Source: Escherichia phage vB_EcoM_ECO78. Taken from it: a stretch of DNA of 64,000 nucleotides. Positions 18,535 through 30,746 of the stretch are shown in pieces (the first letter of the stretch is position 1; each line of letters opens with the position of its first letter). A program made the position numbers and the translations under genes. The notes under the pieces were generated by a model. It was given only the letters and a program-made list of their open reading frames with translations. It was not told where the DNA came from and did no database searches. The stretch is from sequence record PP526941.1, one strand, 5' to 3'.

Positions 18535-18542
18535 TATAAATA
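18535..18542 (+). promoter_or_regulatory. late promoter TATAAATA for gene 34
   Basis: Exact motif 35 nt upstream of gene 34 ATG. Confidence 0.7.
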
Positions 18543-18576: not shown

Positions 18577-21500
18577 ATGGCCGAGATTAAAAGAAAGTTC
18601 AGAGCAGAAGATGGTCTGGACGCAGGTGGTGATAAAATAATCAACGTAGCTTTAGCTGATCGTACCGTAGGAACTGACGGTGTTAACGTTGATTACTTAA
18701 TTCAAGAAAACACAGTTCAACAATATGATCCAACTCGTGGATATTTAAAAGATTTTGTAATCATTTATGATAACCGCTTTTGGGCTGCTATAAATGATAT
18801 TCCAAAACCAGCAGGAGCTTTTAATAGCGGACGCTGGAGAGCATTACGTACGGACGCAAACTGGATTACAGTCTCATCTGGTTCATATCAATTAAAATCC
18901 GGTGAAGCTATTTCGGTTAACACTGCAGCTGGTAATGACATCACGTTTACTTTACCATCTTCTCCAATTGATGGTGATACTATCGTTCTCCAAGATATTG
19001 GAGGAAAACCTGGAGTTAACCAAGTTTTAATTGTAGCTCCAGTGCAAAGTATTGTAAACTTCAGAGGTGAACAAGTACGTTCAGTACTAATGACTCATCC
19101 AAAGTCACAGCTAGTTTTAATTTTTAGTAATCGTCTGTGGCAAATGTATGTTGCTGATTATAGTAGAGAAGCTATAGTTGTAACACCAGCGAATACTTAT
19201 CAAGCGCAATCAAATGATTTTATCGTACGTAGATTTACTTCTGCTGCACCGATAAATATTAAACTTCCACGATTTGCTAATCATGGCGATATTATTAATT
19301 TCGTTGATTTAGATAAACTAAATCCACTTTATCATACAATTGTTACTACATACGATGAAACGACTTCAGTACAAGAAGTTGGAACTCATTCCATTGAAGG
19401 CCGTACAACGATTGACGGTTTCTTGATGTTTGATGATAATGAGAAATTGTGGAGATTGTTTGACGGGGATAGTAAAGCGCGTTTACGTATCATAACGACT
19501 AATTCTAATATTCGTCCAAATGAAGAAGTTATGGTATTTGGTGCGAATAACGGAACAGCTCAGACAATTGAGCTTAAGCTTCCAACTAATATTTCTGTTG
19601 GTGATACTGTTAAAATTTCCATGAATTACATGAGAAAAGGACAAACAGTTAAAATCAAAGCTGCTGATGAAGATAAAATTGCTTCTTCAGTTCAATTGCT
19701 GCAATTCCCAAAACGCTCAGAATATCCACCTGAAGCTGAATGGGTTACAGTCCAAGAATTAGTTTTTAATGGTGAAACTAATTATGTTCCAGTTTTAGAG
19801 CTTGCTTATATAGAAGATTCTGATGGAAAATACTGGGTTGTACAGCAAAATGTTCCAACCGTAGAAAGAGTTGATTCTTTGAATGATTCTACTAGAGCAA
19901 GATTAGGCGTAATTGCTTTAGCTACACAAGCCCAAGCTAATGTCGATTTAGAAAATTCTCCGCAAAAAGAATTAGCAATTACTCCAGAAACATTAGCTAA
20001 CCGTACTGCTACTGAAACTCGCAGAGGTATTGCAAGAATAGCAACTACTGCTCAAGTGAATCAGAACACCACATTCTCTTTTGCTGACGATATTATCATC
20101 ACTCCTAAAAAGCTGAATGAAAGAACTGCTACAGAAACTCGCAGAGGTGTTGCTGAAATTGCTACGCAACAGGAAACTAATGCAGGAACCGATGATACTA
20201 CAATCATCACTCCTAAAAAGCTTCAAGCTCGTCAAGGTTCTGAATCATTATCTGGTATCGTAACTTTTGTATCTACTGCAGGTGCTACTCCAGCTTCTAG
20301 CCGTGAATTAAATGGTACGAATGTTTATAATAAAAACACTAATAATTTAGTTGTTTCACCTAAAGCTTTGGATCAGTATAAAGCTACTCCAACACAGCAA
20401 GGTGCAGTAATTTTAGCAGTTGAAAGTGAAGTAATTGCTGGACAAAGTCAGGAAGGATGGGCAAATGCAGTTGTAACGCCAGAAACGTTACATAAAAAGA
20501 CATCAACTGATGGAAGAATTGGTTTAATTGAAATTGCTACGCAAAGTGAAGTTAATACAGGAACTGATTATACTCGTGCAGTCACTCCTAAAACTTTAAA
20601 TGACCGTAGAGCAACTGAAAGTTTAAGTGGTATAGCTGAAATTGCTACACAAGTTGAATTCGACGCAGGCGTCGACGATACTCGTATCTCTACACCATTA
20701 AAAATTAAAACCAGATTTAATAGTACTGATCGTACTTCTGTTGTTGCTCTATCTGGATTAGTTGAATCAGGAACTCTCTGGGACCATTATACCCTTAATA
20801 TTCTTGAAGCAAATGAGACACAACGTGGTACACTTCGTGTAGCTACACAAGTTGAAGCTGCTGCAGGAACATTAGATAATGTTTTAATAACTCCTAAAAA
20901 GCTTTTAGGTACTAAATCTACCGAATCGCAAGAAGGTGTTATTAAAGTTGCAACACAGTCTGAAACTGTGACTGGAACGTCAGCAAATACTGCTGTATCT
21001 CCAAAAAATTTAAAGTGGATTGTGCAGAGTGAACCAACATGGGCTGCTACTACGGCGATAAGAGGGTTTGTTAAAACTTCATCTGGTTCAATTACATTCG
21101 TTGGTAATGATACAGTCGGTTCTACACAGGACTTAGAGTTATACGAGAAAAATAATTATGCAGTATCACCATATGAATTAAACCGCGTACTTGCTAACTA
21201 TTTGCCATTGAAAGCAAAAGCTGCAGATAGTAATTTATTGGATGGTCTAGATTCATCTCAGTTCATTCGTAGGGATATTGCCCAGACAGTTAATGGTTCA
21301 CTAACCTTAACCCAACAAACGAATCTGAGTGCCCCTCTTGTATCATCTAGTACTGCTACGTTTGGTGGTTCAGTTTCGGCAAATAGTACATTAACTATTT
21401 CTAACTCTGGAACAGCAACTCGTCTGATTTTTGAGAAAGGACCTCAAACTGGAACTAATCCAGCGCAGACGATGACTATCAGAGTTTGGGGAAATCAGTT

Positions 21501-22446
21501 TGGCGGCGGATCAGATACAACACGTTCTACTGTATTTGAAGTTGGTGATGAAACGTCTAATCATTTTTATTCTCAACGTAATAAAGCTGGTAATATAACG
21601 TTTAGCATTAATGGTACTGTGATGCCAATAAATGTTAACGCTTCAGGCACGTTGAATGCGAATGGCGTTGCAACATTCGGTCGTTCAGTTACAGCCAATG
21701 GTGAATTCATTAGCAAGTCTGCAAATGCTTTTAGAGCAATTAGTGGTGATTACGGATTCTTTATTCGTAATGATGCTGCTAATACCTATTTTATGCTCAC
21801 TGCATCCGGTGATCAGACTGGCGGATTTAATGGATTACGTCCTTTGGCTATTAATAATGCATCTGGCCAAGTAACGATTGGTGAAAGCTTAATCATTGCC
21901 AAAGGTGCTACTATAAATTCAGGTGGTTTGACTGTTAACTCGAGAATTCGTTCTCAGGGTAATAAAACATCTGATTTATATACCCGTGCACCAACATCTG
22001 ATACAGTAGGATTCTGGTCAATTGATATTAATGATTCAGCTACTTATAACCAGTTCCCAGGTTATTTTAAAATGGTTGAAAAAACTAATGAAGTGACTGG
22101 ACTTCCATACTTAGAACGTGGCGAAGAAGTTAAATCTCCTGGTACACTGACTCAGTTTGGTAATACACTTGATTCGCTTTACCAAGATTGGATTACTTAT
22201 CCAACGACGCCAGAAGCACGTACCACTCGCTGGACACGTACATGGCAGAAAACCAAAAACTCTTGGTCAAGTTTTGTTCAGGTATTTGACGGAGGTAACC
22301 CTCCTCAACCATCTGATATCGGTGCTTTACCATCTGATAATGCTACAATGGGAAATCTTACTATTCGTGATTTCTTACGAATTGGTAATGTTCGCATTGT
22401 TCCTGACCCAGTGAATAAAACGGTTAAATTTGAATGGGTTGAATAA
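18577..22446 (+). CDS. 34: gp34 long tail fibre proximal subunit (1289 aa)
   Basis: Length identical to T4 gp34; GGAG RBS; internal degenerate repeats. Confidence 0.95.
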   Translation: MAEIKRKFRAEDGLDAGGDKIINVALADRTVGTDGVNVDYLIQENTVQQYDPTRGYLKDFVIIYDNRFWAAINDIPKPAGAFNSGRWRALRTDANWITVSSGSYQLKSGEAISVNTAAGNDITFTLPSSPIDGDTIVLQDIGGKPGVNQVLIVAPVQSIVNFRGEQVRSVLMTHPKSQLVLIFSNRLWQMYVADYSREAIVVTPANTYQAQSNDFIVRRFTSAAPINIKLPRFANHGDIINFVDLDKLNPLYHTIVTTYDETTSVQEVGTHSIEGRTTIDGFLMFDDNEKLWRLFDGDSKARLRIITTNSNIRPNEEVMVFGANNGTAQTIELKLPTNISVGDTVKISMNYMRKGQTVKIKAADEDKIASSVQLLQFPKRSEYPPEAEWVTVQELVFNGETNYVPVLELAYIEDSDGKYWVVQQNVPTVERVDSLNDSTRARLGVIALATQAQANVDLENSPQKELAITPETLANRTATETRRGIARIATTAQVNQNTTFSFADDIIITPKKLNERTATETRRGVAEIATQQETNAGTDDTTIITPKKLQARQGSESLSGIVTFVSTAGATPASSRELNGTNVYNKNTNNLVVSPKALDQYKATPTQQGAVILAVESEVIAGQSQEGWANAVVTPETLHKKTSTDGRIGLIEIATQSEVNTGTDYTRAVTPKTLNDRRATESLSGIAEIATQVEFDAGVDDTRISTPLKIKTRFNSTDRTSVVALSGLVESGTLWDHYTLNILEANETQRGTLRVATQVEAAAGTLDNVLITPKKLLGTKSTESQEGVIKVATQSETVTGTSANTAVSPKNLKWIVQSEPTWAATTAIRGFVKTSSGSITFVGNDTVGSTQDLELYEKNNYAVSPYELNRVLANYLPLKAKAADSNLLDGLDSSQFIRRDIAQTVNGSLTLTQQTNLSAPLVSSSTATFGGSVSANSTLTISNSGTATRLIFEKGPQTGTNPAQTMTIRVWGNQFGGGSDTTRSTVFEVGDETSNHFYSQRNKAGNITFSINGTVMPINVNASGTLNANGVATFGRSVTANGEFISKSANAFRAISGDYGFFIRNDAANTYFMLTASGDQTGGFNGLRPLAINNASGQVTIGESLIIAKGATINSGGLTVNSRIRSQGNKTSDLYTRAPTSDTVGFWSIDINDSATYNQFPGYFKMVEKTNEVTGLPYLERGEEVKSPGTLTQFGNTLDSLYQDWITYPTTPEARTTRWTRTWQKTKNSWSSFVQVFDGGNPPQPSDIGALPSDNATMGNLTIRDFLRIGNVRIVPDPVNKTVKFEWVE

Positions 22447-22454
22447 GAGGTATT

Positions 22455-23570
22455 ATGGAAAAATTTATGGCAGAGTTTGGACAAGGATATGTCCAAACGC
22501 CGTTTTTATCGGAAAGCAATTCAGTAAGATATAAAATAAGCATAGCGGGTTCTTGCCCGCTTTCTACTGCAGGGCCATACGTTAAATTTCAAGATAATCC
22601 TGTAGGAAGTCAAACATTTAGCGCAGGTCTTCATTTAAGAGTTTTTGATCCTTCCACAGGAGCATTAGTTGATAGTAAGTCATATGCTTTTTCTACTTCA
22701 AATGATACTACATCAGCTGCTTTTGTTAGTTTCATGAATTCTTTGACGAATAATCGAATTGTTGCTATATTAACTAACGGAAAGGTTAATTTTCCTCCTG
22801 AAGTAGTATCTTGGTTAAGAACCGCCGGAACGTCTGCTTTTCCATCTGATTCTATATTGTCAAGATTCGACGTATCATATGCTGCTTTTTATACTTCTTC
22901 TAAAAGAGCTATCGCATTAGAGCATGTTAAACTGAGTAATAGAAAAAGCACAGATGATTATCAAACTATTTTAGATGTAGTATTTGACAGTTTAGAAGAT
23001 GTCGGAGCTACAGGATTTCCAAGAAGAACGTATGAAAGCGTTGAGCAATTTATGTCAGCTGTTGGTGGAACTAATAACGAAATTGCGCGTCTACCAACTT
23101 CAGCTGCTATAAGTAAATTATCTGATTATAATTTAATTCCTGGTGATGTTCTTTATCTTAAAGCTCAGTTATATGCTGATGCTGATTTACTTGCACTTGG
23201 AACTACGAATATATCCATTCGATTTTATAATGCATCAAATGGATATATTTCCTCGACACATGCTGAATTTACTGGGCAAGCTGGGTCATGGGAATTAAAG
23301 GAAGATTATGTAGTTGTTCCAGAAAACGCAGTAGGATTTACGATATACGCACAGAGAACTGCACAAGCTGGCCAAGGTGGCATGAGAAATTTAAGCTTTT
23401 CTGAAGTATCAAGAAATGGCGGCATTTCAAAACCCGCTGAATTTGGCGTCAACGGTATTCGAGTTAATTATATCTGTGAATCTGCTTCACCTCCGGATAT
23501 AATGGTACTTCCTACACAAGCATCGTCTAAAACTGGTAAAGTGTTTGGGCAAGAATTTAGAGAAGTATAA
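22455..23570 (+). CDS. 35: gp35 long tail fibre hinge connector (371 aa)
   Basis: Size and position in 34-38 operon. Confidence 0.9.
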   Translation: MEKFMAEFGQGYVQTPFLSESNSVRYKISIAGSCPLSTAGPYVKFQDNPVGSQTFSAGLHLRVFDPSTGALVDSKSYAFSTSNDTTSAAFVSFMNSLTNNRIVAILTNGKVNFPPEVVSWLRTAGTSAFPSDSILSRFDVSYAAFYTSSKRAIALEHVKLSNRKSTDDYQTILDVVFDSLEDVGATGFPRRTYESVEQFMSAVGGTNNEIARLPTSAAISKLSDYNLIPGDVLYLKAQLYADADLLALGTTNISIRFYNASNGYISSTHAEFTGQAGSWELKEDYVVVPENAVGFTIYAQRTAQAGQGGMRNLSFSEVSRNGGISKPAEFGVNGIRVNYICESASPPDIMVLPTQASSKTGKVFGQEFREV

Positions 23571-23574
23571 ATTG

Positions 23575-23599
23575 AGGGAGCCTTCGGGTTCCCTTTTTC
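23575..23599 (+). terminator. rho-independent terminator after gene 35 (UUCG tetraloop hairpin plus U5)
   Basis: AGGGAGCC-UUCG-GGUUCCCU followed by TTTTT. Confidence 0.6.
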
Positions 23600-23601
23600 T
23601 T

Positions 23602-23609
23602 TATAAATA
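23602..23609 (+). promoter_or_regulatory. late promoter TATAAATA for gene 36
   Basis: Exact motif 24 nt upstream of gene 36 ATG. Confidence 0.7.
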
Positions 23610-23632: not shown

Positions 23633-24295
23633 ATGGCTGATTTAAAAGTAGGTTCAACAACCGGGGGCTCTGTCATTTGGCATCAAGGAAATTTTCCATT
23701 GAATCCAGCCGGTGACGATGTACTCTATAAATCATTTAAAATATATTCAGAATATAATAAACCACAAGCTGCTGATAACGATTTCGTTTCTAAAGCTAAT
23801 GGTGGTACTTACGCCGCGACTGTTCGATTTAATGGAGGCGTACATGTTCCTACTATAGGTAGTAGTCAACAGTGTGGTGTTTATCCAGGTAACGGTGATG
23901 CAGCTACTTTTGCTATGGCAAATATTGACATCGTTTCGTGGAATGGTATTGGTTTTAAATCATCACAAGGTTCAGCAGACCGAACTGTTGTAATTAACGC
24001 TCGTACCGGTGATATCAGCAGTAAGGGCGGTTTTTATGCAACTGGTCCTGTCCGTTCTAACGCTACTGCTCCGGTTGCAGCAAATGACCTTACTAGAAAG
24101 GACTATGTTGATGGAGCAATAAATACTGTTACGGAAAATGCGAACTCTAGAGTGTTACGATCTGGCGACACTATGACGGGTAACTTAACCGCACCAAATT
24201 TTTTCTCGCAGAATCCTGCGTCTCAACCTTCACACGTTCCACGATTTGACCAAATCGTAATTAAGGATTCTGTTCAAGATTTCGGCTATTATTAA
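23633..24295 (+). CDS. 36: gp36 long tail fibre distal connector (220 aa)
   Basis: Size and position. Confidence 0.9.
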
Positions 24296-24303
24296 GAGGA
24301 CTT

Positions 24304-27300
24304 ATGGCTACTTTAAAACAAATACAATTTAAAAGAAGCAAAACCGCAGGTGCACGTCCTGCTGCTTCAGTATTAGCCGAAGGTGAATTGGCTATAAACT
24401 TAAAAGATAGAACACTTTTTACTAAAGATGATTCGGGAAATATCATTGATCTAGGTATTGCTAAAGGCGGTCAAATTGATGGAAATGTGACTATCAATGG
24501 TCTTTTAAGATTAAATGGGGATTATACACAAACTGGTGGAATGACCGTAAATGGACCTATTGGTTCTACTGAAGGCGTATCCGCCTTAGTTTTTAGATCT
24601 ATGCGAGGGTCATTTTACGCAAGAGCAACAAATGATACTTCCAATGCCCATCTTTGGTTTGAAAATACAAATGGATCAGAGAGAGGGGTTTTATATTCAA
24701 AACCACAGTCTGAAAATGAAGGCGTAATTACAATGCGTGTTCGTCAAGGAACCGCTGCGGGAGCTCAAAATTCAGAATTTCATTTCATTTCTACTGATGG
24801 CGGTATCTTCCAGGCACGCAAATTAACTGCTTTAACTTCTATTAGTACACCAACTATTAGTGTTAATTTAATTAATCATGATTCTAAAGCCTTTGGACAA
24901 TACGATTCGCAATCATTAGTTCAGTATGTTTATCCTGGAACTGGTGAAACTAACGGAGTAAACTATCTTCGTAAAGTTCGAGCTAAATCAGGTGGCACTA
25001 TGTGGCATGAGCTTTGTACTGCTCAGACTGGCCAGGCTGATGAAATGTCTTGGTGGACAGGTAATACTCCATCATCTAAACAATATGGCATTCGTAATGA
25101 CGGACGAATGGCAGGCCGTAATAGCCTTGCATTAGGTACATTCACTACGGGTTTCCCGTCTAGTGATTATGGTAACGTCGGTGTAATGGGCGATAAGTAT
25201 CTTGTTCTCGGTGACACTGTAACCGGTCTGAAATATATTAAGCAAGGTGTTTATGATTTAGTTGGTGGAGGTTATTCCGTTGCATCTGTTACTCCAGATA
25301 GTTTCCGTAGTACTCGTAAAGGTATATTTGGTCGCTCAGAAGACCAAGGTGCTACATGGAACATGCCTGGAAACAACGCCGCGTTTTTATCGGTTCAAAC
25401 ACAAGCTGATGAAAACACTGCTGGAGACGGCCAGACACATATTGGCTATAACTCAGGCGGTAAAATGAACCACTATTTCCGTGGTAAAGGCAAAACTAAT
25501 ATTAATACTCAAGAAGGCATGGAAGTTAACCCGGGTATTCTTAAACTAGTAACCGGTGCTAACAGTATTAGCTTTAACGCTGCAACAGGTAATATTGATT
25601 CTACATTAGCTTTTCGTCTTAATAAAGGTATAATTATTGATGGACCTGATAATCAGGGATTCCAATTTAATGCTCCGACGGCTGTAGATGGTACTAGAAG
25701 CATATACTGGAATAGTGGCACTCGCGCAGGTCAAAACAAAAACCCTGTTACAGTTAAAGTGTGGGGTAATTCATTTAACGCATCTGGTGATCGTAGTCGT
25801 GAAACCGTTTTTGAAGTAGCTGATGGGCAAGGTTACCATTTTTATTCTCAACGCGTAGCTCCTGCACCTGGTTCGACTGTCGGGCCTATTCAACTCCGAG
25901 TTAATGGTGGTTTATTAACTTCTGGTGGTATTACTGCTTCCGGTTCTATTGTTACTGAATCAAGTTTAGTTGCAAATAATGGATTATCTGTAAATGGTCA
26001 GGCTAAATTTGGCGGAACAGCAAACGCACTAAGAATTTGGAACGCTGAATATGGTGCTATTTTCCGTCGTTCGGAAAGTAACTTTTATATTATTCCAACC
26101 AATCAAAACGAAGGCGAAAGCGGAGACATTCACAGCTCTTTGAGACCTGTGAGAATAGGATTAAACGATGGCATGGTTGGGTTAGGAAGAGATTCTTTTA
26201 TAGTAGATCAAAATAATGCTTTAACTACTATAAACAGTAACTCTCGCATTAATGCCAACTTTAGAATGCAATTAGGACAAAATGCTTATATAGATATTGA
26301 GGCTTCTGATGGAATTCGCCCAACAGGTTGTGGTTCCTTTGCATCTCAGAATGACGTAAACGTCAGAGCTCCAATTTATATGAATATAGAGCGTACTGCT
26401 ACTTCTGAATATATTCCTATTGTTAAACAGCGTTATGTGCAAGGTGATAGCACTTATTCTATTGGGACATTAATTAATCAAGGAGATTTCCGTGTTCATT
26501 ACCGCCAAGGCACCGGTACGGGTGGCACTGATTTGAGTTGGGAATTCCGTCGCACAGGCGATTTCCGCGCGGCAGGTAAAATTATTGCTGGTGCTGCTAC
26601 TCTTGGCACTGATGGTAATATCACCGGTGGTTCTGGTAACTTTGCTAACCTGAATACCACATTAAATCGTAAGGTAAATTCCGGATTTGTAACATACGGT
26701 GCAACGGCCGGATGGTACAAATTCGCTACAGTAACGATGCCACAATCTACTTCTACTGTTTCATTTACTATAACTGGTGGTAAAGGATTTAATACCGGAC
26801 TGTTTACACAATGTGCTATAACAGAAATTGTTCTTCGTACTGGTAATGACCGCCCAGCAGGTTTAAACGCCGTGATGTATACCAGAACAGCGGCAGGTCT
26901 TACTGATATTGCTGTAGTTAATACCTCAGGAAATACATATGATGTCTATGTTGAAGCTGGCACTTATGCCAACCAATTAGCTTATACCTGGCATACAGTT
27001 GATAATGCTACCGTAGAAGTTATTGGCGCTTTTGGTCCTACTCAAGACCCGGTAGATTCTTTGCCGGCTAATTATGTTAAAGGCCAAGTAGCTAACATGC
27101 TTAACAACCTGGTAGACACAGGTAAAGTAAAACGTTATGTAGCAGATTCTGAAATTGCTATTAATAACCAAACGGGTCTTCGTATTACGAGTAATTATGA
27201 TAGATCAGGTTCTAATTCCGTTTTGTTTCGAAATGACGGTGGAAGCTTCTATATTTTACTGACTGACAAAAACTCTTCAGACGGCGATAATAAAGCAACT

Positions 27301-28227
27301 GAAGGTGATTGGAATGGAAAACGACCATTTTCAATTGATATGACTGCTGGTACTGTTCGTCTTGGCGAAAATACTTCTTTTAGTAAAGATGTTACTATTG
27401 ATGGAAACATTAATTCACGAGTTAAAGTTGTCGGACAGTGGAATGTTAGCTTTTCTGATATTTCAGATGTGACTCGTGACCGTTCTGCATTTTTAGTGAA
27501 TACGGGTGGCATTTCCAATACAAGTCAATCTTATTACCCGCTATTTTCTGGATACAGTTTTTTAACTGACGCGGGTTATCGCCAATCGTTTGAATTTGGA
27601 TGGTTAGGTGTTTCTGGTACTTGGCGTCAAGGTATTATTCGCATGCGTGGTGACAACGCATCGGGGCAACAGGCTCGTTGGACTTTTGATATGGATGGAA
27701 CATTTTATGCTCCTAAATTGGCTTGCGGTTCTACCGGTGCCCTCGGTATTAACACATCCAACGGATGGGGTGGTAACTCAATTGCAATTGGTGATAGCGA
27801 TACTGGTTTTAGACAAGTAGGCGATGGGCTTTTAGAAGCGTGGGCGAACAACGTTAAAGTTGTTAGATTCACTTCGAGCGAAGTTTATTCCGAGAAAAAC
27901 GTCAATGCTCCTAACGTTTATATTCGTTCTGATGTTCGCTTGAAATCTAATTTTAAACCTATTAAAAATGCGCTCGAAAGGGTTGAGCAACTTGATGGTT
28001 TAATCTATGACAAAGCTGAATATATAGGCGGTGAACCTGTTCAAACTGAAGCGGGTATTATAGCTCAAACGTTACAAGACGTTTTACCAGAAGCTGTCCG
28101 TGAATCAGAAGATAGCAAGGGTAATAAAATACTCACTGTTTCTTCTCAAGCCCAGATTGCTCTTCTGGTTGAAGCTGTGAAAACACTTTCTGCTCGTGTA
28201 AAAGAACTTGAATCTAAACTTATGTAA
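24304..28227 (+). CDS. 37: gp37 long tail fibre distal subunit (1307 aa) with C-terminal intramolecular chaperone domain
   Basis: Conserved fibre N-terminus [12 protein letters not shown]; C-terminal SDVRLK...coiled-coil tail typical of S74-type self-cleaving chaperone. Confidence 0.9.
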
Positions 28228-28228
28228 A

Positions 28229-28256
28229 AGAGGGCTTCGGCCCTCTAAGGATTTTT
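28229..28256 (+). terminator. UUCG-tetraloop hairpin after gene 37 (attenuator or RNA 3' end)
   Basis: AGAGGGC-UUCG-GCCCUCU at 28229-28246, T-run 28252-28256. Confidence 0.4.
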
Positions 28257-28257
28257 A

Positions 28258-29043
28258 ATGGCAATTGTAGGTGTTCCTGGCTGGATTGGTGAATCTGCTG
28301 TGAATGAAACTGGACAACGTTGGATGGATGCTGCGATGAAAGCTGTTCGTGTTTCAGTTCCCGGCTGGATGAGCTCAATGGCTGGACAATCTAAAGAAAT
28401 TCATTATAGCATTGGTGCTAGCAATTCTTACAATAAAGACACTCTTATTAACTGGATGAAAGCACAGGGGTCTACTCCGGTAGTAATTACTATTACAGGA
28501 AATATTGTTTCTTCATCGACAGGTCAACCATGCTTAGATTTTCCTAGCTCATTAACTAATGCATACGTGACACTTAATATCAATTCAGGCGTGCATGTTT
28601 GGGGTCGCGGCGGGAATGGTGGAAATAACTCTGCTGGCGGAGCAGGAGGAACTGCAATAAATAACGGAATTGGAACTAGATTACGTATTAATAACAATGG
28701 TGTTATCGCAGGCGGCGGTGGCGGCGGTGGCGGCGGATACTACTCTCCTTTTTCACAAATGAGATTGACTTTTGGTGGAGGAGGCGGTCGTCCATTTGGT
28801 GCGGCTGGCGGGTCTGCTAATATGGAACAGGGTGCTACTGCTGGTACTATTTCTGCGCCCGGTAAAGGGTCTGTCAACGGTATCTATAATGGCGGGAATG
28901 GTGGTGATGCCGGTGCCGCAGGAGGTAAATGTAATATTCGCGGTCAAGGATCAGAATATAATGGCGGCGCTGCTGGTAAAGCTGTTACTGGTAATGCTCC
29001 AACTTGGACTAAAGTTGGTACAATATATGGTGCAAGAGTATAA
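28258..29043 (+). CDS. 38: gp38 receptor-recognising adhesin, T2-type (261 aa, glycine-rich motifs)
   Basis: Conserved N-terminus plus five poly-Gly blocks characteristic of T2-type gp38. Confidence 0.85.
   Translation: MAIVGVPGWIGESAVNETGQRWMDAAMKAVRVSVPGWMSSMAGQSKEIHYSIGASNSYNKDTLINWMKAQGSTPVVITITGNIVSSSTGQPCLDFPSSLTNAYVTLNINSGVHVWGRGGNGGNNSAGGAGGTAINNGIGTRLRINNNGVIAGGGGGGGGGYYSPFSQMRLTFGGGGGRPFGAAGGSANMEQGATAGTISAPGKGSVNGIYNGGNGGDAGAAGGKCNIRGQGSEYNGGAAGKAVTGNAPTWTKVGTIYGARV
28711..28737 (+). repeat. (GGCGGCGGT)x3 simple repeat encoding poly-glycine inside gp38
   Basis: Direct reading of sequence. Confidence 0.9.
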
Positions 29044-29074
29044 TTTTGAATAAATATCCTTAAAAGGAGGGTCT

Positions 29075-29731
29075 ATGGCAGCACCTAGAATATCATTTTC
29101 GCCCTCTGATATTCTGTTGGGTGTTCTAGATCGCTTGTTCAAAGATAACGCTACCGGGAAGGTTCTTGCTTCCCGGGTAGCTGTCGTAATTCTTTTGTTT
29201 ATGATGGCGATTGTTTGGTATAGGGGAGATAGTTTCTTTGAGTACTATAAGCAATCAAAGTATGAAACATACAGTGAAATTATTGAAAAGGAAAGAAATG
29301 CACGCTTTGAATCTGTCGCCCTGGAACAACTCCAGATAGTTCATATATCATCTGAGGCAGACTTTAGTGCGGTGTATTCTTTCCGCCCTAAAAACTTAAA
29401 CTATTTTGTTGATATTATAGCATATGAAGGAAAATTACCTTCAACAATAAGTGAAAAATCACTTGGAGGATATCCTGTTGATAAAACTATGGATGAATAT
29501 ACAGTTCATTTAAATGGACGTCATTATTATTCCAACTCAAAATTTGCTTTTTTACCAACTAAAAAGCCTACTCCTGAAATAAATTACATGTACAGTTGTC
29601 CATATTTTAATTTGGATAATATCTATGCTGGAACGATAACCATGTACTGGTATAGAAATGATCATATAAGTAATGACCGCCTTGAATCAATATGTTCTCA
29701 GGCGGCCAGAATATTAGGAAGGGCTAAATAA
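29075..29731 (+). CDS. t: holin t (218 aa)
   Basis: Length and sequence match T4 holin; single N-terminal TM segment. Confidence 0.92.
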   Translation: MAAPRISFSPSDILLGVLDRLFKDNATGKVLASRVAVVILLFMMAIVWYRGDSFFEYYKQSKYETYSEIIEKERNARFESVALEQLQIVHISSEADFSAVYSFRPKNLNYFVDIIAYEGKLPSTISEKSLGGYPVDKTMDEYTVHLNGRHYYSNSKFAFLPTKKPTPEINYMYSCPYFNLDNIYAGTITMYWYRNDHISNDRLESICSQAARILGRAK

Positions 29732-30527: not shown

Positions 30528-30746
30528 TTATGTTTTGCGACTAAATTGTTCATAGTGCTGAATTACCTCTCTTAAACATTTGCATGTGAATGAAAACTTT
30601 TTAGCTACACCACATTCAAATATATGTTCTCTTAAATCACGTGTATCGGTATATCCCATCTCAACAATAAAATGCCGTATTAGATTTTTATCTTTATCGT
30701 TAAGAGAATTAAAATAATCGGATTTTGAATTAATTTCCCTGGCCAA
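30528..30746 (-). CDS. hypothetical protein (72 aa)
   Basis: ORF in arn-motA interval. Confidence 0.45.
   Translation of the reverse strand: MAREINSKSDYFNSLNDKDKNLIRHFIVEMGYTDTRDLREHIFECGVAKKFSFTCKCLREVIQHYEQFSRKT

Follow-up and report, generated by a model that had tools for sequence, protein, structure and literature searches.

In the T-even phages T2 and T6, the distal subunit of the long tail fibre, gp37, is cleaved at its C-terminus and then capped by the adhesin gp38 (PMC3157838). In phage S16, gp37 autocleaves its last 113 residues at the site DLNVS^SDRRIKK, which exposes the dock for gp38, and an equivalent site, DVYIR^SDGRLK, has been proposed for Yersinia T4-like phages (PMC7917993). 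The S16 adhesin docks into the gp37 trimer through three tryptophans (PMC6851490). Within gp38, five glycine-rich motifs and four hypervariable segments have been defined by Trojet et al. (2011), who also described that each C-terminal subtype of gp37 travels with a matching N-terminal subtype of gp38 in a lock-and-key manner (PMC3157838).

Here, the corresponding module of Escherichia phage vB_EcoM_ECO78 (ECO78) is considered. It consists of genes 37 and 38 (g37 and g38) at positions 24304–29043 of the window, i.e., the whole 64,000-nucleotide (nt) stretch of record PP526941.1 that was analysed. With a probability of roughly 0.85, this module represents the T2-type distal end of a Tequatrovirus long tail fibre, in which a self-cleaving gp37 would be capped by a monomeric, Tsx-binding gp38. 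The reading draws on the structure and domain content of the genes, on conserved residues and modelled folds, and on the allele relationships and mosaic pattern observed at this locus. The coordinates and lengths that had been given for both open reading frames (ORFs) in an original prediction, made from the sequence alone, proved exact (aa, amino acids):

24304–28227, plus strand: g37, ATG ORF of 1307 aa (140.3 kDa), precursor of the distal long-tail-fibre subunit
28258–29043, plus strand: g38, ATG ORF of 261 aa (25.8 kDa), tip adhesin

The C-terminal chaperone of gp37

The distal end of gp37 comprises a fibre tip followed by a chaperone domain:

27736–27927, plus strand: gp37 aa 1145–1208, T2-type fibre tip with the last residues NVYIR, predicted docking surface for gp38 after cleavage
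27928–27945, plus strand: SDVRLK, Ser1209/Lys1214 catalytic dyad, with the predicted scissile bond between Arg1208 and Ser1209
27928–28224, plus strand: gp37 aa 1209–1307, intramolecular chaperone (Peptidase_S74) domain of 99 aa (10.9 kDa) with a long helix at its end

The domain is recognised by Pfam Peptidase_S74 (PF13884) at residues 1209–1266 (E 1.7e-13, 51 bits against a gathering score of 22), and the same match is found in gp37 of T2 and T6 but not in that of T4. It had been placed at residues 1180–1307 in the original prediction; the chaperone itself stands, with its S74 match, an intact Ser/Lys motif and a fitting fold modelled by AlphaFold2 (AF2), whereas its start has to be moved to residue 1209 because this is where the Pfam match begins. 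When aligned, T2, T6 and five further relatives all carry the SDxRxK signature at this position, and the preceding NVYIR is identical or nearly so in all seven. In a 38-sequence alignment of more distant fibres, conservation is 90% or more at V1205, Y1206, I1207, R1208, S1209, D1210, K1214 and N1216. Conservation of the whole domain is 94–100% within the T2-type gp37 proteins, whose shafts vary freely.

The last ~90 residues of gp37 are well modelled by AF2, with a predicted local distance difference test (pLDDT) score of 84–89, and the predicted fold includes a long terminal helix (aa 1281–1306), the part that forms the trimeric coiled coil in chaperones of this kind. When the AF2 model of aa 796–1307 was compared with solved structures, it matched WceF (6tgf, score 12.1), the MyRF intramolecular chaperone (7dc3, score 8.9, 25% identity), the T5 L-shaped fibre (4uw8, score 7.3), the chaperone of endosialidase NF (endoNF; 3gw6, score 6.2), the GA-1 neck appendage (3gud, score 5.8) and the S16 gp37 tip (6f45_A, score 5.0). 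Foldseek likewise matched the model to solved intramolecular-chaperone domains, and a sequence search linked aa 1154–1305 to 6F45_A with E 1.2e-9. The catalytic dyad of endoNF, S911/K916 (PMC8326128), has the same spacing as Ser1209/Lys1214.

Since gp37 aligns with the S16-type cleavage site, the cut is predicted between Arg1208 and Ser1209. By analogy with the studied homologues, cleavage at NVYIR^SDVRLK would yield a mature subunit of 1208 aa (129.4 kDa) and a released piece of 99 aa (10.9 kDa).

The gp38 adhesin and its likely receptor

The whole of gp38 is covered by Pfam GP38 (PF05268; E 6.9e-72, 242 bits against a cut-off of 25), accompanied by Gp38_N (PF21721; E 7.2e-18), and a phmmer search aligned its residues 8–259 with the S16 adhesin 6F45_D (E 1.9e-48). 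An AF2 model built with 58 homologues reached a pLDDT of 92 and superimposed on 6F45_D with template-modelling scores of 0.80/0.83 (Foldseek E 4e-21); it also matched the receptor-binding domain of PP01 gp38 (9v85, E 2e-19). The model has the three-domain fold with a polyglycine-II sandwich. The adhesin of phage M1 (P0105), which is related to that of Ox2, is 52% identical to gp38. The claim that this protein is of the adhesin type is borne out by its full-length alignment to S16 6F45_D, T2 and T6, with none to the T4 chaperone: a direct BLASTP against the 183-aa T4 gp38 gave no alignment (E = 22). The two points on which the original prediction had been made to depend, an S74 match in gp37 and a gp38 that does not align to the T4-type chaperone, were both examined and came out in its favour. 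Three parts can be distinguished along the protein:

28258–28395, plus strand: gp38 aa 1–46, T2-type attachment domain, a three-helix bundle with Trp9, Trp22 and Trp37
28396–28602, plus strand: gp38 aa 47–115, linker and central beta-helix, with 66/69 residues identical to the protein of phage vB_Eco_NR1 (NR1)
28603–28992, plus strand: gp38 aa 116–245, T6/Tsx-type specificity region with five glycine-rich motifs and four hypervariable segments

The helices of the attachment domain lie at residues 10–18, 23–29 and 38–41 of the model, and its three tryptophans are invariant in an alignment of eight phages. In the specificity region, the glycine-rich motifs (GRMs) are found at about aa 116–131, 151–160, 173–185, 211–223 and 235–245. 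The "five poly-Gly blocks" noted originally are therefore correct in the sense of Trojet et al. (2011), but only two of them contain pure glycine runs, G9 at 152–160 and G5 at 173–177. Across sets of 8 and 58 gp38 sequences the glycine motifs are conserved and the hypervariable segments (HVSs) variable. The corresponding region of the S16 crystal structure forms 10 polyglycine-II helices (PMC6851490).

It is conceivable that the S74 domain is vestigial, being either uncleaved or cleaved dispensably, and that the main role of gp38 is in fibre assembly, as for its T4 namesake. Processing of gp37 is only predicted for this phage, and many database records label gp38 as "distal long tail fiber assembly catalyst". 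This explanation is extremely improbable in view of the Ser/Lys dyad and the surrounding VYIRSDxRLK retained across the relatives, the near-invariance of the chaperone beside a freely varying shaft, and a gp38 that resembles a solved virion adhesin along its entire length and not the T4 chaperone.

A self-cleaving gp37 capped by an adhesin is also what the gene arrangement suits, g38 lying directly 3′ of the S74-ending g37, with a spacer of 30 nt, and the holin gene t following further downstream. The subtypes of the two proteins bear on their fit. Identities of the gp38 parts to T2 and T6 are as follows:

Attachment domain, aa 1–46: T2 44/46, T6 30/46
Linker and beta-helix, aa 47–115: T2 44/69, T6 24/69
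HVS2: T2 0/12, T6 11/12
HVS3: T2 6/25, T6 19/25
HVS4: T2 3/14, T6 10/11

By these sequence comparisons, gp38 is a chimera of a T2-type attachment half and T6-type specificity loops. The label "T2-type" thus holds for the architecture and for the pair formed by the gp37 tip and the gp38 attachment domain, but not for the specificity loops, which are T6-like. The C-terminus of gp37 belongs to the T2 subtype, not to that of T6, and so does the N-terminus of gp38; this combination fits the lock-and-key pairing rule. As in the solved homologue from S16, gp38 would cap the gp37 trimer as a monomer.

The receptor can be predicted from the closest relatives of the adhesin. ECO78 gp38 is 98.1% identical to that of NR1 and 96.9% to that of FriedrichMiescher (Bas39); its four hypervariable segments are the same as in NR1, and within these segments R169K is the sole difference from Bas39. 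The primary receptor of Bas39 is Tsx, according to the supplement of the BASEL study (PMC8594841), and T6 likewise uses Tsx. Closely related gp38 proteins share receptors in a phylogeny of 223 sequences (PMC12032242). Because gp38 is nearly identical to the adhesin of the Tsx-dependent Bas39 and its loops are T6-like, its primary receptor is quite probably the nucleoside channel Tsx and not the FadL/OmpF used by T2.

The following sequence of events can be proposed by homology. The genes g36, g37 and g38 would be transcribed late, from a promoter assigned by its position. Three 1307-aa gp37 chains would trimerise, the C-terminal chaperone of 99 residues nucleating their folding; the general chaperone gp57A is likely needed for this trimerisation, as follows from work on S16 and T4. 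After folding, Ser1209/Lys1214 would cut the Arg1208–Ser1209 bond and the 99-aa chaperone would leave. The exposed NVYIR tip would then be capped by a single gp38, with Trp9, Trp22 and Trp37 entering three symmetry-related pockets. Finally, the loops of the polyglycine-II sandwich would bind Tsx reversibly, leading to baseplate triggering as in other T-even phages.

Several points weigh against this reading or parts of it. Cleavage, monomeric capping and Tsx binding are ascribed to ECO78 by way of its homologues. The AF2 model of gp37 aa 796–1307 represents a monomer of what is a trimeric fibre, has a mean pLDDT of 69 and is poor outside two domains. The gp37 tip at aa 1151–1200 is of the subtype of phage vB_Eco_T-01 (T-01), which was not seen together with this gp38 allele among the phages compared; compatibility of tip and adhesin is assumed because the attachment domain is identical. 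As for the receptor, Bas43 is also Tsx-dependent with quite different HVS2–4, so the mapping of loops to receptors is not one-to-one. Furthermore, receptor use can shift or broaden through a handful of exchanges in the hypervariable segments: PST, in which a few residues of HVS2/3 are unlike those of T6, requires OmpA as well, and SV76, two residues off T2, uses different receptors (PMC3157838).

These last cases leave room for the architecture described above with a receptor that is not Tsx or not Tsx alone, namely OmpA, a PST-like combination of Tsx, OmpA and lipopolysaccharide (LPS), or a T2-like FadL/OmpF. The phylogenetic neighbours of the Tsx group are OmpA type-1 adhesins (PMC12032242), and the N-terminal half of gp38 is T2-like. 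The T2-like part, however, is the attachment domain, which makes no receptor contact in the S16 structure (PMC6851490), and HVS2–4 have very little in common with T2. Moreover, all four segments are those of NR1, and the only change relative to the Tsx-dependent Bas39 is the conservative R169K. A receptor other than Tsx, or in addition to it, is thus unlikely.

Fibre shaft, mosaic alleles and expression signals

Over its full length (aa 1–1307), gp37 matches phrog_1699, "long tail fiber protein distal subunit" (E = 0). Upstream of the tip, its features are:

24304–26688, plus strand: gp37 aa 1–795, proximal shaft common to T4 gp37
24420–24660, plus strand: recombinant patch of 241 nt, 100% identical to g37 of ime09 and UFV13
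25780–26154, plus strand: gp37 aa 493–617, Gp34_trimer-like shaft domain (Pfam PF21446, E 2.1e-10)
26689–27108, plus strand: gp37 aa 796–935, beta-sandwich domain, start of the non-T4 distal part

In a BLASTP alignment of 858 columns, 68% of the positions are identical to T4 gp37, one stretch of about 100 residues being the same throughout, and homology stops near aa 795. The first 50 aa, which are 88–100% identical across the T-even phages compared, are presumed to join gp36. Residues 465–656 match PDB entry 4uxe (T4 gp34, E 3.9e-16). Distal to residue ~795, about 410 residues absent from T4 gp37 precede the chaperone. In this part, the beta-sandwich domain is modelled by AF2 with a pLDDT of 75–92 in most 10-residue blocks and 65 in one block, and it also matches phrog_21552, phrog_3299 and phrog_6722. 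Its aa 796–906 (26689–27021) are 47% identical to P0133, and the gp37 tip at aa 1145–1201 (27736–27906) is 60% identical to the same protein, a tail fibre of 800 aa from an E. coli prophage, in which Pfam Phage_tail_fib and Phage_fiber_2 mark N-terminal domains of the P2 type and S74 is absent. This likeness points to a module exchange between T-even and P2-like fibres. An NCBIfam scan gave no match for either gp37 or gp38.

The beta-sandwich domain might itself provide the shaft with an additional, lateral binding site, e.g., for LPS/O-antigen sugars, in which case gp37 would set the host range together with gp38. This is decidedly improbable; if true, the host range resulting from a T-01-type shaft and tip combined with a Bas39-type adhesin could not be predicted from gp38 by itself.

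From its start to 24 kb, the window is 96–97% identical to many Tequatrovirus genomes, the best being NR1 (96.7%). The start of g36, the first 130 nt of g37, the chaperone and gene t are 96–100% identical in every relative, whereas g37 and g38 form a patchwork with identities of 15–100% per 100-nt bin, in agreement with the original description of the module as recombinogenic. The middle of g36 (23933–24232) is divergent, with best values of 81–90% per 100 nt among seven relatives against 98–100% at both ends, so the variable zone starts inside g36 and not at the start of g37.

The closest full-length gp37 proteins are those of T-01 (90.9%) and 310Ecol104PP (90.5%), and the nearer of the two changes along the protein: at aa 651–800 the identity is 68–80% to T-01 against 90–98% to 310Ecol104PP, and at aa 1151–1200 it is 60% to 310Ecol104PP against 98% to T-01. 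In the patch at 24420–24660 (aa 51–100) both are only 58–82% identical. A novel gp37 segment was considered at this place and rejected, the DNA being fully identical to that of ime09 and UFV13.

In g38, the identity to T-01 drops from 97% (aa 117–145) to 66% (aa 146–174), the second bin containing both HVS2 and GRM2, the motif with the G9 run, while NR1 gp38 stays at 97–100% at the protein level across this part; the closest relative of g38 switches in the GRM2–HVS2 region. The idea of glycine motifs as crossover points is familiar from the literature, and the drop is consistent with it. At 28333–28532 (aa ~26–92) the protein is 97–100% identical to that of NR1, yet the DNA is only 86–94% identical to any phage of the collection, with the best match to Pu-Krd-SF3/SF4 (93.8%), a pattern suggestive of purifying selection with most of the divergence being synonymous.

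The exact gp37 and gp38 sequences were not found among 15 billion public proteins, which makes both alleles new and says nothing on function. A large protein search with gp37 aa 796–1307 listed only proteins of 291–885 aa, with a best match of 55%, and served solely as a source of alignments; it was not used to judge novelty because it had missed full-length GenBank gp37 proteins that are ~91% identical. The candidates scored in that search may include too few of the very long fibre proteins. What is new is the allele combination only: a T-01/310Ecol104PP-like shaft with an ime09 patch, a T-01-type tip, and an NR1/Bas39-type Tsx adhesin with a T2-type attachment domain.

The two genes lie in a canonical T-even long-tail-fibre operon with the order g34-g35-g36-g37-g38-t:

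18577–22446, plus strand: g34, Pfam Gp34_2nd and Gp34_trimer
22455–23570, plus strand: g35, upstream of g36 in the long-tail-fibre operon
23633–24295, plus strand: g36, Pfam Phage_T4_gp36
29075–29731, plus strand: gene t (holin), Pfam Phage_holin_T (E 2.4e-117), the conserved downstream boundary of the variable module

The pattern of minus-strand ORFs 3′ of t fits, as an ORF pattern only, the genes asiA, arn, arn.2–arn.4, motA and gp52 annotated in NR1. Minus-strand ORFs of 61–89 aa within g37 and g38 were taken as chance ORFs in a long, well-supported coding region. The following candidate signals were noted:

23602–23609, plus strand: TATAAATA, T4 late-promoter consensus, 24 nt 5′ of g36
28229–28246, plus strand: hairpin AGAGGGC-UUCG-GCCCUCU, inside the 30-nt g37–g38 spacer
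28247–28251, plus strand: AAGGA ribosome-binding site, between the spacer hairpin and the g38 ATG
29049–29056: AATAAATA, one mismatch against the T4 late-promoter consensus, 19 nt 5′ of the t holin start

Judged by position, TATAAATA at 23602 is probably the start of a late g36-g37-g38 transcript; a second copy stands at 18535, just 5′ of g34. The octamer is not enriched in the window (7 found against 9.35 expected), and promoter calls are therefore positional only. AATAAATA, which is separated from the holin start by an AAGGAG ribosome-binding site, could be a separate late promoter for t. Besides the spacer hairpin, there is a second GC-rich hairpin with a UUCG loop at 23574–23595, directly 3′ of g35 and abutting TATAAATA before g36. 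The sites equivalent to both hairpins are annotated as terminators in NR1, and these structures may act as mRNA stabilisers or partial terminators. An Rfam scan of the whole window gave no match. A direct-repeat search in g34–g38 revealed no large g34/g37 DNA duplication; the only repeats were those expected for gp34 and short ones in g38 that code for GGNGG.

Some features of the surrounding genes may be mentioned separately. Families of 25–68-nt direct repeats at 19978–20903 in g34 encode a repeated gp34 motif, ITPxxL...ATE..RG.A.IAT, and this region matches phrog_910, "tail collar fiber protein", in six stretches. The hinge protein gp35 matches Pfam ILEI (interleukin-like EMT (epithelial–mesenchymal transition) inducer/FAM3 fold) at aa 58–127, with E 6.3e-9 and 36.7 bits for a cut-off of 27; by its name, this family would not be expected in the hinge of a phage fibre. 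Between arn and arn.2, a TTG-start ORF of 72 aa on the minus strand (30528–30746) occupies the place where T4 has the 43-aa arn.1; by position and length, it fits the hypothetical protein NR1_117.

Comparison with known systems

The module decides which bacteria the phage adsorbs to, and it yields a testable receptor prediction, Tsx. For phage therapy and engineering, it suggests exchangeable units: the gp37 tip with the gp38 attachment domain as one, the specificity loops as another. Moreover, patchwork recombination of tail-fibre genes can be seen here in a clear natural case. Earlier work has already covered the architecture, the mechanism of the chaperone and the fold of the adhesin, and current understanding is left unchanged.

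T2 (LC348380; gp37 of 1341 aa, gp38 of 262 aa) has the same gene order and architecture, an identical S74 cleavage site with a 99-aa piece, and a gp38 attachment domain that is the same in 44 of 46 residues. It differs in that its gp37 is only 63% identical overall, its gp38 loops are unrelated (HVS2 0/12, HVS3 6/25) and its receptors are FadL/OmpF. With T6 the relationship is reversed: its Tsx adhesin (MH550421) has the same length of 261 aa and close loops (HVS2 11/12, HVS3 19/25, HVS4 10/11), whereas the attachment domain shares 30 of 46 residues, and gp37 has 994 aa, 20% identity and a 113-aa chaperone preceded by the site DVYIR^SDSRLK.

Among the phages with the closest alleles, NR1 and Bas39, which have nearly the same adhesin, carry gp37 proteins that are only 48–54% identical and 41–47 aa shorter. 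T-01 and 310Ecol104PP have gp37 proteins ~91% identical along the full length, that of 310Ecol104PP also being 1307 aa long, but the specificity loops of their gp38 are different (for T-01, HVS2 6/12 and HVS4 3/13).

The gp37–gp38 tip of S16 (PDB 6F45) is the structural prototype, in which a trimeric gp37 tip exposed by autocleavage carries one gp38 cap. Its gp38 consists of a three-tryptophan attachment domain, a beta-helix and a polyglycine-II sandwich, and the gp38 considered here is alike in these respects. The differences are a gp38 identity of 43%, a much shorter gp37 and a chaperone of 113 residues. The receptor of S16 is Salmonella OmpC.

T4 shares the gene order, and the first ~795 residues of its gp37 (1026 aa) are 68% identical. 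By Pfam, T4 gp37 then ends in a Collar/needle adhesin with Collar, starting at aa 816, and Phage_fiber, and without S74; neither Collar nor Phage_fiber was found in ECO78 gp37 by the Pfam scan. According to Trojet et al., the C-terminal part of T4 gp37 is a lambda-derived replacement (PMC3157838). T4 gp38 (183 aa), to which ECO78 gp38 is unrelated, serves as a chaperone in assembly and does not become part of the virion (PMC3157838). The contrast with T4 drawn at the outset is therefore upheld: the module belongs to the fibres with T2-type gp38 adhesins and an S74 chaperone-bearing gp37, and not to the T4-type arrangement.

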